Part shown: positions 4,456 through 8,536 of the stretch, piece after piece
How the letters are laid out: every line of letters begins with the position of its first letter
Numbering within the stretch: the first letter of the stretch is position 1
Assembly: GCF_003334315.1 (NCBI RefSeq)
Contig: NZ_QOWR01000051.1
DNA from: Escherichia coli
GTDB taxonomy: Bacteria > Pseudomonadota > Gammaproteobacteria > Enterobacterales > Enterobacteriaceae
Direction: 5' to 3' (one strand)
DNA length: 33,719 nt
Made by a program: the position numbers and the translations under genes
Notes under the pieces: model-generated
The model's input: the letters and a program-made list of their open reading frames with translations, nothing else
Told to the model about the DNA's origin: nothing
Databases searched by the model: none

Positions 4456-7068
4456 TCAAGCCAGTGCTTTAGTTATCTTCTCGTACAGATCGCCAGAGAG
4501 ATTTTCCAGCCCTTTCAACTGTTCCAGCGCCGCGCGCATTTTCTCCTGACGTTTGGCATCGTAACGTTTCAGGCGAATCAGCGGTTCAATCAGACGTGAA
4601 GCCACCTGCGGGTTACGGCTGTTGAGGTCGGTAAGCATTTCCACCAGGAACAGGTAACCGCTGCCATCTTCGGCATGGAACGCTGCCGGATTGCTGCCCG
4701 CAAACGCGCCAATCAACGAACGAATACGGTTCGGGTTGCTCATGGTAAATGAGCGATGCTGCAACAGGCCGCGCACCGTCTCCAGCACATTCGCCGCCGG
4801 GCTGGTGGCTTGCAGGATAAACCATTTATCCATCACCAGACCGTTCTGATGCCACTTGTCGTCGTACTCCTGCATCAGCGCGTCACGGCAAGGCAGCTGT
4901 GCGGCAACCGCCGCAGAAAGCGCCGCCAGCGCATCAGTCATATTGTTTGCTTCGTGGAACTGCTTGCTCACCAGCACATCAGCCAGATGCGTTTCACCAA
5001 AAGCGAGGAAACGCAGGCAGGCATTACGCAGAGTGCGTTTTGCAATATCTTCATGCTCAACACGGTACTCGCTCTGGTAATTCGCGTTGTAAATAGCCAG
5101 TAGCTCATCCGCCAGTTCAGTCGCCAGAGTACGAGTGAGTGCTTCGCGTACTTCGGCAATAGCAATCGGGTCGATGATATCGAACAATTCAGCCATTTCA
5201 TTGACAGAAGGCAGCGTCAGGATTTCTGCCGCCAGCGCTGGATCAATCTTCTCATCAAGCAGTACCGCGCGGAAAGCATCAGCCACATGCACCGGCAGAG
5301 ACAGCGGCTGACCTTGCTGATGACGCGCGACGTTCAGCTTGATGTAGGTTGCCAGCAAACTTTGCGCCGCATCCCAGCGGGAGAAATCATTACGCGCATG
5401 ACGCATCAGGAAGGTCAGTTGCTGATCGCTCCACTTATATTCCAGTTTCACTGGCGCAGAGAATTCGCACAGCAGCGCAGGCACCGGCTGGAAGTAGACA
5501 TTATCAAAGACAAAGGTCTGTTCCGCCTGAGTGACGTTCAGCACGGAATTCACCGGATGACCGCCTTTCTGCAACGGGATCACTTTGCCTTCGTTATCAT
5601 ACAGTTCGATGGCAAACGGAATATGCAGCGGCTGTTTTTCTGCCTGATCCGGCGTGGCTGGCGTGCGCTGGCTGATGGTCAGGGTGTACTGCTCGGTTTC
5701 CGGATTGTAGTCGTCTTTGACGGTCACAATCGGTGTACCGGACTGGCTGTACCAACGGCGGAAATGGGAGAGATCGACATTCGACGCATCTTCCATCGCC
5801 TGCACAAAGTCGTCACAGGTCGCTGCACTACCATCATGACGCTCGAAATAAAGCTGCATCCCTTTCTGGAAGTTTTCTTCGCCAAGCAGGGTGTGGATCA
5901 TGCGAATCACTTCCGCGCCCTTCTCGTAAACGGTCAGGGTGTAGAAGTTGTTCATCTCAATGACCATATCCGGGCGGATCGGGTGCGCCATCGGGCTGGC
6001 GTCTTCTGCAAACTGCAATCCGCGCATGGTGCGTACATTATTGATGCGGTTAACTGCGCGGGAACCAAGGTCAGAGCTGAACTCCTGATCGCGGAAGACG
6101 GTTAAACCTTCTTTCAGGCTGAGCTGGAACCAGTCGCGACAGGTCACTCGGTTACCGGTCCAGTTATGGAAATATTCATGGCCGATAACGCGTTCAATAT
6201 CGAGGTAATCTTTGTCGGTGGCGGTGTCGGTGCGGGCCAGCACATATTTGGAGTTAAAGATATTCAGCCCCTTATTCTCCATTGCGCCCATATTGAAGAA
6301 ATCCACCGCGACGATCATATAGATGTCGAGGTCATACTCCAGGCCAAAGCGTTCTTCATCCCATTTCATGGAGTTTTTCACCGAGGTCATCGCCCACGGC
6401 GCGCGATCAAGGTTGCCGCGATCGACGTACAGCTCCAGTGCTACTTCGCGACCAGAACGCGTGGTAAAGGTATCGCGCAGTACATCAAAGTCGCCTGCCA
6501 CCAGCGCAAACAGGTAGCACGGTTTCGGGAACGGGTCCTGCCACTGTACCCAATGGCGTCCGTTTTCCAGTTCGCCTTGCGCAACGCGGTTACCATTGGA
6601 AAGCAGGAAGGGATATTTGATTTTATCGGCAATAATTTTGGTGGTAAAACGCGCCAGCACGTCCGGGCGGTCGAGATAATACGTAATATGGCGGAAACCT
6701 TCGGCTTCACACTGGGTGCAAAGCGCATCGCCTGACTGATAAAGCCCTTCCAGCGCGGTATTCGCCGCCGGGCTTATTTCATTAATGATCTTAAGCGTAA
6801 AACGCTCCGGCAAATTACTGATAACCAGTGCGCCCTCTTCTTCTTTCCAGGCGGTCCACGGCTCATCATTAATATGAACAGAAACCAGTTTGAGGTCTTC
6901 GCCGTTGAGACGAAGGGGAGCATCTGATGCACCATGACGGACAGCCTGGCTGACCGCGGTAACGACCGTCTTTTGCGCGTCGAGGTCAAAGGTCAAGTCA
7001 ATATCAGTAATCTGGTAATCCGGCGCACGATAATCGTGACGGTATTTGGCTTGTGGCTGTTGAGTCAT
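4456..7068 (-). CDS. pepN: Aminopeptidase N (M1 zinc metallopeptidase)
   Basis: 870-aa ORF with HEYFHNWTG (HExxH) zinc motif and GAMEN motif; length matches E. coli PepN. Confidence 0.95.
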   Translation of the reverse strand: MTQQPQAKYRHDYRAPDYQITDIDLTFDLDAQKTVVTAVSQAVRHGASDAPLRLNGEDLKLVSVHINDEPWTAWKEEEGALVISNLPERFTLKIINEISPAANTALEGLYQSGDALCTQCEAEGFRHITYYLDRPDVLARFTTKIIADKIKYPFLLSNGNRVAQGELENGRHWVQWQDPFPKPCYLFALVAGDFDVLRDTFTTRSGREVALELYVDRGNLDRAPWAMTSVKNSMKWDEERFGLEYDLDIYMIVAVDFFNMGAMENKGLNIFNSKYVLARTDTATDKDYLDIERVIGHEYFHNWTGNRVTCRDWFQLSLKEGLTVFRDQEFSSDLGSRAVNRINNVRTMRGLQFAEDASPMAHPIRPDMVIEMNNFYTLTVYEKGAEVIRMIHTLLGEENFQKGMQLYFERHDGSAATCDDFVQAMEDASNVDLSHFRRWYSQSGTPIVTVKDDYNPETEQYTLTISQRTPATPDQAEKQPLHIPFAIELYDNEGKVIPLQKGGHPVNSVLNVTQAEQTFVFDNVYFQPVPALLCEFSAPVKLEYKWSDQQLTFLMRHARNDFSRWDAAQSLLATYIKLNVARHQQGQPLSLPVHVADAFRAVLLDEKIDPALAAEILTLPSVNEMAELFDIIDPIAIAEVREALTRTLATELADELLAIYNANYQSEYRVEHEDIAKRTLRNACLRFLAFGETHLADVLVSKQFHEANNMTDALAALSAAVAAQLPCRDALMQEYDDKWHQNGLVMDKWFILQATSPAANVLETVRGLLQHRSFTMSNPNRIRSLIGAFAGSNPAAFHAEDGSGYLFLVEMLTDLNSRNPQVASRLIEPLIRLKRYDAKRQEKMRAALEQLKGLENLSGDLYEKITKALA

Positions 7069-7286
7069 AAATAACCTTTAGCATCTTTTATAGAGTCTGG
7101 TGTTCAGTCTATTCCTGTTGCGTAAATCGCGCTATGCAGAATCTTCATCTTTTCAGGTACAAACGCCTTTATTGCTACATTTTTATAACATACACCGCGT
7201 AATGCCATCGACCAGAAAGGTGGCATATGGTGTGATCGGGGTTCAATAAATTGCGAAACAAGGTATACTCCAGCAGTTCCTGAAGA

Positions 7287-7304
7287 TGTTTATTGTACTA
7301 AACG
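7287..7304 (+). promoter_or_regulatory. Putative NadR operator (NAD box) upstream of pncB
   Basis: Palindrome tgtttA-ttgtac-TAAAcg directly upstream of the pncB start; pncB is an established NadR-repressed gene. A tatact hexamer lies at 7264-7269. Confidence 0.55.
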
Positions 7305-7333
7305 CTCCTGTACGAGGACGCTACTGCGCACCT

Positions 7334-8536
7334 ATGACACAATTCGCTTCTCCTGTTCTGCACTCGTTGCTGGATACAGATGCTTATAAGTTGCATATGC
7401 AGCAAGCCGTGTTTCATCACTATTACGATGTGCATGTCGCGGCGGAGTTTCGTTGCCGAGGTGACGATCTGCTGGGTATTTATGCCGATGCTATTCGTGA
7501 ACAGGTTCAGGCGATGCAGCACCTGCGCCTGCAGGATGATGAATATCAGTGGCTTTCTGCCCTGCCTTTCTTTAAGGCCGACTATCTTAACTGGTTACGC
7601 GAGTTCCGCTTTAACCCGGAACAAGTCACCGTGTCCAACGATAATGGCAAGCTGGATATTCGTTTAAGCGGCCCGTGGCGTGAAGTCATCCTCTGGGAAG
7701 TTCCTTTGCTGGCGGTTATCAGTGAAATGGTACATCGCTATCGCTCACCGCAGGCCGACGTTGCGCAAGCCCTCGACACGCTGGAAAGCAAATTAGTCGA
7801 CTTCTCGGCGTTAACCGCCGGTCTTGATATGTCGCGCTTCCATCTGATGGATTTTGGCACCCGTCGCCGTTTTTCTCGCGAAGTACAAGAAACCATCGTT
7901 AAGCGTCTGCAACAGGAATCCTGGTTTGTGGGCACCAGCAACTACGATCTGGCGCGTCGGCTTTCCCTCACGCCGATGGGAACACAGGCACACGAATGGT
8001 TCCAGGCACATCAGCAAATCAGCCCGGATCTAGCCAACAGCCAGCGAGCTGCACTTGCTGCCTGGCTGGAAGAGTATCCCGACCAACTTGGCATTGCATT
8101 AACCGACTGCATCACTATGGATGCTTTCCTGCGTGATTTCGGTGTCGAGTTCGCTAGTCGGTATCAGGGCCTGCGTCATGACTCTGGCGACCCGGTTGAA
8201 TGGGGTGAAAAAGCCATTGCACATTATGAAAAGCTGGGAATTGATCCACAGAGTAAAACGCTGGTTTTCTCTGACAATCTGGATTTACGCAAAGCGGTTG
8301 AGCTATACTGCCACTTCTCTTCCCGCGTGCAATTAAGTTTTGGTATTGGGACTCGCCTGACCTGCGATATCCCCCAGGTAAAACCCCTGAATATTGTCAT
8401 TAAGTTGGTAGAGTGTAACGGTAAACCGGTGGCGAAACTTTCTGACAGCCCTGGCAAAACTATCTGCCATGATAAAGCGTTTGTTCGGGCGCTGCGCAAA
8501 GCGTTCGACCTTCCGCATATTAAAAAAGCCAGTTAA
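7334..8536 (+). CDS. pncB: Nicotinate phosphoribosyltransferase
   Basis: ORF track starts at 7286, but [19 protein letters not shown] begins at the ATG at 7334, giving the expected 400 aa; the 7286 start would sit inside the NAD box. Confidence 0.92.

Follow-up and report, generated by a model that had tools for sequence, protein, structure and literature searches.

The imperfect palindrome TGTTTATTGTACTAAACG upstream of Escherichia coli pncB is very probably the NadR operator of the pncB promoter (transcription start site, TSS, at 7276), with translation proceeding from the ATG at 7334 and the in-frame ATG at 7286, which the palindrome overlaps, being accidental. This assignment draws on the match to the known operator pattern, the position of the element relative to a published TSS, its conservation, and the agreement of the proposed gene start with current annotation and with homologous proteins. 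The operator consensus, the membership of pncB in the NadR regulon and the 400-residue form of the protein are all already known. The coordinates of the features discussed below are collected in Table 1.

Table 1. Features of the pepN-pncB region (positions refer to the window)
Feature	Position	Strand	Remarks
pepN	4456..7068	minus	
pncB-asnS		plus	3' of the 265-bp pepN-pncB spacer
Conserved upstream block TGTGATCGGGGTTCAAT	7231..7247	+	-45..-29 of the pncB TSS; contains a putative weak -35 region
pncB -10 hexamer TATACT	7264..7269	+	-12..-7, by position relative to the published TSS
pncB TSS (G)	7276	+	Kim et al. 2012
Divergent distal pepN TSS and likely -10 TACAAT	7284..7297	minus	TSS 7284 in two independent maps; source coordinates NC_000913.2
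In-frame upstream ATG (start of longest ORF)	7286..7288	+	A plus the TG of the operator left arm; +11 of the mRNA; not conserved
Predicted NadR operator TGTTTA-TTGTAC-TAAACG	7287..7304		+12..+29 of the pncB TSS; -3..-20 of the divergent TSS 7284
GAGGA, sole Shine-Dalgarno-like element	7314..7318	+	15 nt 5' of ATG 7334, unusually far
pncB CDS (nicotinate phosphoribosyltransferase, 400 aa plus stop)	7334..8536	+	Predicted start; RefSeq, TIGR01514 and PDB homologues from this Met

The pncB locus and promoter

The stretch of DNA analysed here (hereafter, the window; 33,719 nucleotides) is from the E. coli chromosome and carries pepN, followed by pncB and asnS on the opposite strand. Positions 7000-7700 (701 bases), around the operator, match E. 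coli K-12 MG1655 at 100% identity, and a search of 5426 complete E. coli genomes found this 701-base stretch in every one; the segment 7262-7340 (79 nt) occurs without mismatch (at least 99% identity) in 5404 of the 5426. The nadR gene lies outside the window and is annotated in K-12 as a DNA-binding repressor. The pncB product matches the nicotinate phosphoribosyltransferase PncB family over its full length, above cutoff and from the proposed start, scoring 618.7 bits against TIGR01514 (cutoff 269.55) and 599.1 bits against NCBIfam NF003704.

A scan of 7000-7400 for consensus promoters and terminators gave no matches, and the promoter was therefore placed from the published TSS. Kim et al. 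(2012, Table S1; PMC3415461) mapped the start of pncB to NC_000913 989637 (minus strand), supported by 180 reads and giving a 5' UTR of 58 nt; their -50..+1 sequence TATGGTGTGATCGGGGTTCAATAAATTGCGAAACAAGGTATACTCCAGCAG is identical to window positions 7226-7276. The SMRT-Cappable-seq supplement contained no pncB entry. The -10 hexamer is present in 80 of 80 related genomes (as TATACTT in locus L073), and TTCAAT (7242-7247) is, by its 16-nt spacing to the -10, a putative weak -35 region. The surrounding block TGTGATCGGGGTTCAAT is nearly invariant in 50 distinct operator-bearing sequences and largely kept in species that lack the operator; its conservation across most enterobacterial genera is beyond what a weak -35 region alone would explain. 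A CRP site at TGTGATCGGGGTTCA (7231-7245) was considered and rejected, as its second half is poor by eye and its centre would fall near -38.

A predicted NadR operator downstream of the pncB start site

NadR dimers loaded with NAD bind an 18-bp palindrome, TGTTTA-N6-TAAACA, in promoters of genes for the de novo and salvage pathways (PMC2330246, PMC2330245), and NadR represses nadB, nadA, pnuC and pncB (PMC12421817); both the consensus and the repression of pncB are taken here from the literature. In the window, TGTTTATTGTACTAAACG comprises a left arm TGTTTA (7287-7292), a spacer TTGTAC (7293-7298) and a right arm TAAACG (7299-7304), and agrees with 11 of the 12 specified bases, the palindrome being imperfect in that the right arm reads TAAACG and not TAAACA. 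The initial annotation had described this tgttta-N6-taaacg palindrome as overlapping an ATG at 7286, and so it does: the TG of that codon forms the first two bases of the operator. It is the sole match with at most one mismatch in the 33.7-kb window, where 0.09 would be expected, and scaling by simple arithmetic to the 265-bp pepN-pncB spacer gives an expectation of about 7e-4. A second NadR site in the same spacer was sought and rejected. The best candidates (7148-7165 and 7243-7260) each have four mismatches, and the latter also persists in species where the main operator is absent, so that it was treated as promoter sequence rather than as an operator.

The comparison with the nadA and nadB operators, which had been proposed as a check, was run in K-12, and matching palindromes are present at both genes. 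The nadA site, TGTTTAGCATATAAAACA, lies at about -54..-37 of the nadA TSS, as read on the -50..+1 sequence in the table of Kim et al. At nadB a perfect site, TGTTTAGTAAATTAAACA, ends 7 nt 5' of the ATG and is accompanied by a second, TGTTTAGCAACTGTAACA, with two mismatches. The two nadB sites, at 523-540 and 597-614 of locus L003, have centres 74 bp apart, and the perfect one covers the ribosome-binding region. No site with three or fewer mismatches was found upstream of K-12 nadR.

The pncB element shares its half-sites and its 6-bp spacer length with the nadB and nadA-pnuC operators of E. coli and Salmonella. The quality of the match to consensus is similar at the three genes (one mismatch at pncB, one at nadA, none at nadB), and all three sites lie in the promoter or leader of genes for NAD synthesis or salvage. 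Their placement differs, however: at pncB the site follows the TSS, whereas at nadA it overlaps the -35 region and at nadB it abuts the start codon and has the weaker companion. A position of +12..+29 at pncB, compared with that at nadA, suggests that NadR acts from differing positions at differing promoters. The pncB site also differs in the terminal G of its right arm and in its spacer, TTGTAC, as against GCATAT and GTAAAT.

Taken by its match to consensus, its place in the promoter and leader of pncB, the equivalent sites at nadA and nadB, and the conservation of its half-sites described below, the element is classed as a predicted NadR box. The earlier suggestion that it suits a NadR operator positioned to repress pncB thus holds up well, given a single mismatch, a site within the early transcribed region, conservation, and a gene already published as a NadR target.

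Conservation and patchy distribution of the operator

Loci of pncB from 80 Enterobacteriaceae species were retrieved with a protein-based scan that was blind to the upstream DNA. In 54 of these species, which represent more than 15 genera, the 18-mer occupies position -47 or -46 relative to the ATG, and all 12 half-site bases are invariant among the 54. Between the TSS and the operator, the same species differ in sequence and carry insertions and deletions.

The operator is absent from the remaining 26 species, among them Klebsiella, Raoultella, Atlantibacter, Trabulsiella and Mangrovibacter (loci L029, L037, L040, L049, L051, L053-L055, L057-L059, L062, L063, L066-L068, L071, L073, L076-L078 and L080-L084). 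Here the region at about -60..-30 from the ATG is instead occupied by another segment, whose end reads GATGGAAACGCTCC (in the Atlantibacter group, CAGGAAACGC), and the promoter -10, the leader and the GAGGA motif are kept. This distribution points to the gain or loss of NadR control over pncB in particular lineages, and it agrees with the published statement that pncB is in the NadR regulon of several, not all, enterobacteria (PMC5343134).

The right-arm G, where the consensus has A, is conserved, and it is also found in species without the operator (GGAAACGCTCC). Part of the right arm may therefore be kept for another reason, and the apparently mismatched base is best read, from these alignments, as part of an older conserved leader.

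Other palindromes occur upstream of some of the operator-less genes. In Klebsiella, Raoultella and Trabulsiella (L040, L051, L055, L057, L058) a palindrome with two mismatches, TGTTCAATATATTAAACT, is present at -154..-157 relative to the ATG. A perfect one, TGTTTAGTACTCTAAACA, occurs in Enterobacter sp. Ag1 (L078) at 1304-1321, which is 197 nt 5' of pncB and follows an unrelated 406-aa ORF; this ORF has no NCBIfam match.

A divergent pepN start at the operator

The operator lies against a second, opposed transcription start. A distal pepN TSS was mapped to 989629 on the plus strand of K-12, with 5 reads and a 5' UTR of 216 nt (Kim et al. 2012, PMC3415461), and Cappable-seq on the pepN strand gives the same position a score of 39.4, compared with 59.9 for the pepN TSS at 989738. 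On the reverse strand of 7292-7297, at -13..-8 of this start and inside the operator, the sequence reads TACAAT, which is likely to be the pepN -10 hexamer. The promoter of pncB and that of the distal pepN transcript thus face and overlap each other, and the operator may be common to both.

This arrangement raises the question of whether the 18-mer serves mainly as the core promoter of the distal pepN start, or as an element of the pncB mRNA leader, rather than as a repressor site. The agreement of two independent maps on the minus-strand TSS at 7284, and the retention of a reverse-strand TAnnnT in every spacer variant of the other genera, do speak for a promoter function. The outer half-site bases (TGTT and the AACG end), however, fall outside the hexamer and are equally invariant, and the site agrees with the NadR consensus of the literature and is similar to those at nadA and nadB. 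A leader element fares no better, as a scan of 7069-7420 against Rfam (E <= 1) returned no match, the fold of the 85-nt leader was not better than that of shuffled sequences (z = +0.57), and the consensus fold of leaders from 35 species reached -2.3 kcal/mol with zero compensatory changes. We consider either function very improbable as a replacement for the repressor site; for the pepN promoter, an additional role is the more likely one.

The leader 3' of the operator, 7305-7333 (GCTCCTGTACGAGGACGCTACTGCGCACCT), is highly conserved in 80 of 80 genomes, and RNA structure, covariation and Rfam families give no account of this conservation. A leader RNA element, or a hairpin that would reduce the distance between the Shine-Dalgarno sequence and the AUG, was dropped from consideration, with no support from Rfam, folding or covariation.

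If the operator is a NadR site with the TACAAT hexamer inside it, NadR should occlude the distal pepN start as well. Whether one operator in this way serves both opposed promoters is a tentative proposal that we regard as possible but doubtful; a literature search turned up no report that connects pepN with NadR in E. coli. Were it true, the conservation of part of the spacer, equal to that of the half-sites, would follow from the need for a reverse-strand TAnnnT.

Predicted translation start of pncB at the second in-frame ATG

The mechanically generated ORF list places pncB at 7286..8536 (416 aa, beginning MFIVLNAP). Direct reading shows a second ATG at 7334-7336, followed by ACA CAA TTC GCT TCT CCT GTT, to give MTQFASPV. 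The initial annotation had located the longest ORF and this conserved N-terminus at exactly these positions and had argued that the ORF track sets the gene start too far upstream. The homologues concur. In RefSeq, K-12 pncB starts at the base equivalent to 7334 and encodes 400 aa. The NF003704 alignment covers residues 18-414 of the 416-aa form and model positions 3-396, and that of TIGR01514 opens at residue 24 of the same form and model position 1. In the structure of Yersinia pestis PncB (3os4), which begins MTQDASPIL, residue 1 aligns with residue 17 of the 416-aa form. RefSeq, NF003704, 3os4 and the frame-breaking relatives described next thus agree on 7334, and the over-extension affects the ORF track only.

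Among the 80 genomes, an ATG at -48 is restricted to Escherichia and Intestinirhabdus. In about 30 others, including Citrobacter, Salmonella, Enterobacter and relatives, the codon at -48 is TTG, in most cases with a stop at -51. A 1-nt deletion directly 5' of the true ATG puts the TG of the operator out of frame in Kluyvera, Kosakonia, Phytobacter and others, which form the group with the operator at -46, and in further species in-frame stops are found at -9, -21, -39 or -42; in L039 the stop falls within the 16-codon extension. Variable columns are distributed over the three codon positions as 6/4/6 in -48..-1, as compared with 74/49/175 in the first 600 coding bases.

The ribosome-binding context gives less guidance. 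The GAGGA motif pairs with the 3' end of 16S rRNA at -5.9 kcal/mol and is invariant in 35 of 35 aligned species, at much the same distance from the ATG. At normal spacing before ATG 7334 there is no pairing, so that sequence context by itself marks this start only weakly. ATG 7286 would have an mRNA leader of 10 nt, with no anti-Shine-Dalgarno pairing to the 16S 3' end (dG >= 0).

The poor ribosome-binding site at 7334 is among the features that could favour ATG 7286 as a genuine, possibly minor, start, from which a 416-aa PncB isoform would be made and the choice of isoform would also be affected by NadR binding or by the operator sequence. That codon lies inside the mRNA, is in frame with no intervening stop, and is kept in E. 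coli, E. albertii and E. whittamii. Against this, homologue alignments leave the extension without a counterpart in family models or solved structures, the frame is lost or the codon replaced by TTG in most genera, there is no third-position bias, and no Shine-Dalgarno pairing accompanies the short leader; RefSeq does not use 7286. Together these argue that the extension is not coding, and we judge the longer isoform very improbable. The predicted start of pncB is ATG 7334, on the combined evidence of RefSeq, the NCBIfam models, solved homologues and the 80 enterobacterial genomes. The upstream ATG is accounted for by the operator: in Escherichia, an A happens to precede its invariant TG, and no stop follows in that frame.

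No entry for the N-terminus of PncB was found in the published N-terminomics and Ribo-seq supplements searched. The N-terminus is said to have been sequenced as TQFASPV... by Wubbolts and colleagues in the Journal of Biological Chemistry in 1990, and UniProt P18133 reportedly records the removal of the initiator Met from the pncB product.

The over-extended start stems from the rule of taking the longest ORF and does not reflect an error in the databases, current RefSeq already having the short form. It resembles a common annotation artefact, in which an in-frame ATG lies upstream of the true one with no stop between them. A similar case is provided by pncB of Klebsiella pneumoniae MGH 78578 (KPN_00967), listed at 1239 nt as compared with 1203 nt in E. 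coli (Kim et al., PMC3415461). The length of KPN_00967 matches an in-frame ATG at -36 (L055), and it is probably the product of the same long-ORF over-extension.

Discussion

It appears extremely improbable that the palindrome is an AT-rich inverted repeat that arose by chance and regulates nothing, for although about 10 matches with one mismatch to a 12-base pattern are expected by arithmetic in a 4.6-Mb genome, and at least one arose in 8 of 100 shuffles of the window, this one sits in the 265 bp that hold the promoter of a published NadR target, its half-sites are invariant in the 54 operator-bearing species while the adjoining leader diverges, and equivalent sites are found at nadA and nadB.

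In E. coli and Salmonella, NAD-loaded NadR acts as a repressor of both nicotinate salvage and the de novo pathway. With 7287-7304 as the NadR operator of pncB, the repressor would be bound when NAD is plentiful, inside the downstream edge of the RNA polymerase footprint or slightly past it. From its position we infer a steric mechanism, in which bound NadR would block open-complex formation, promoter escape or early elongation. Less nicotinate phosphoribosyltransferase, which catalyses the first step of nicotinate salvage, would then be made. The lac operator O1 offers a general parallel, in that there, too, the repressor occupies the early transcribed region and overlaps the polymerase footprint on its downstream side. 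The NadR site of pncB is centred further downstream, however, near +20.5 as compared with +11 for O1, and the lac repressor differs in family and effector.

The significance of these results is mainly one of quality control: both the true operator and the true start codon of pncB can be recognised from raw sequence, and longest-ORF tracks over-extend the gene by 16 codons. Two observations go slightly beyond the literature consulted, namely the patchy distribution of the operator among the Enterobacteriaceae and its position over the divergent pepN start. If the latter does reflect shared control, high NAD would shut off not only pncB but also the long-leader pepN mRNA.
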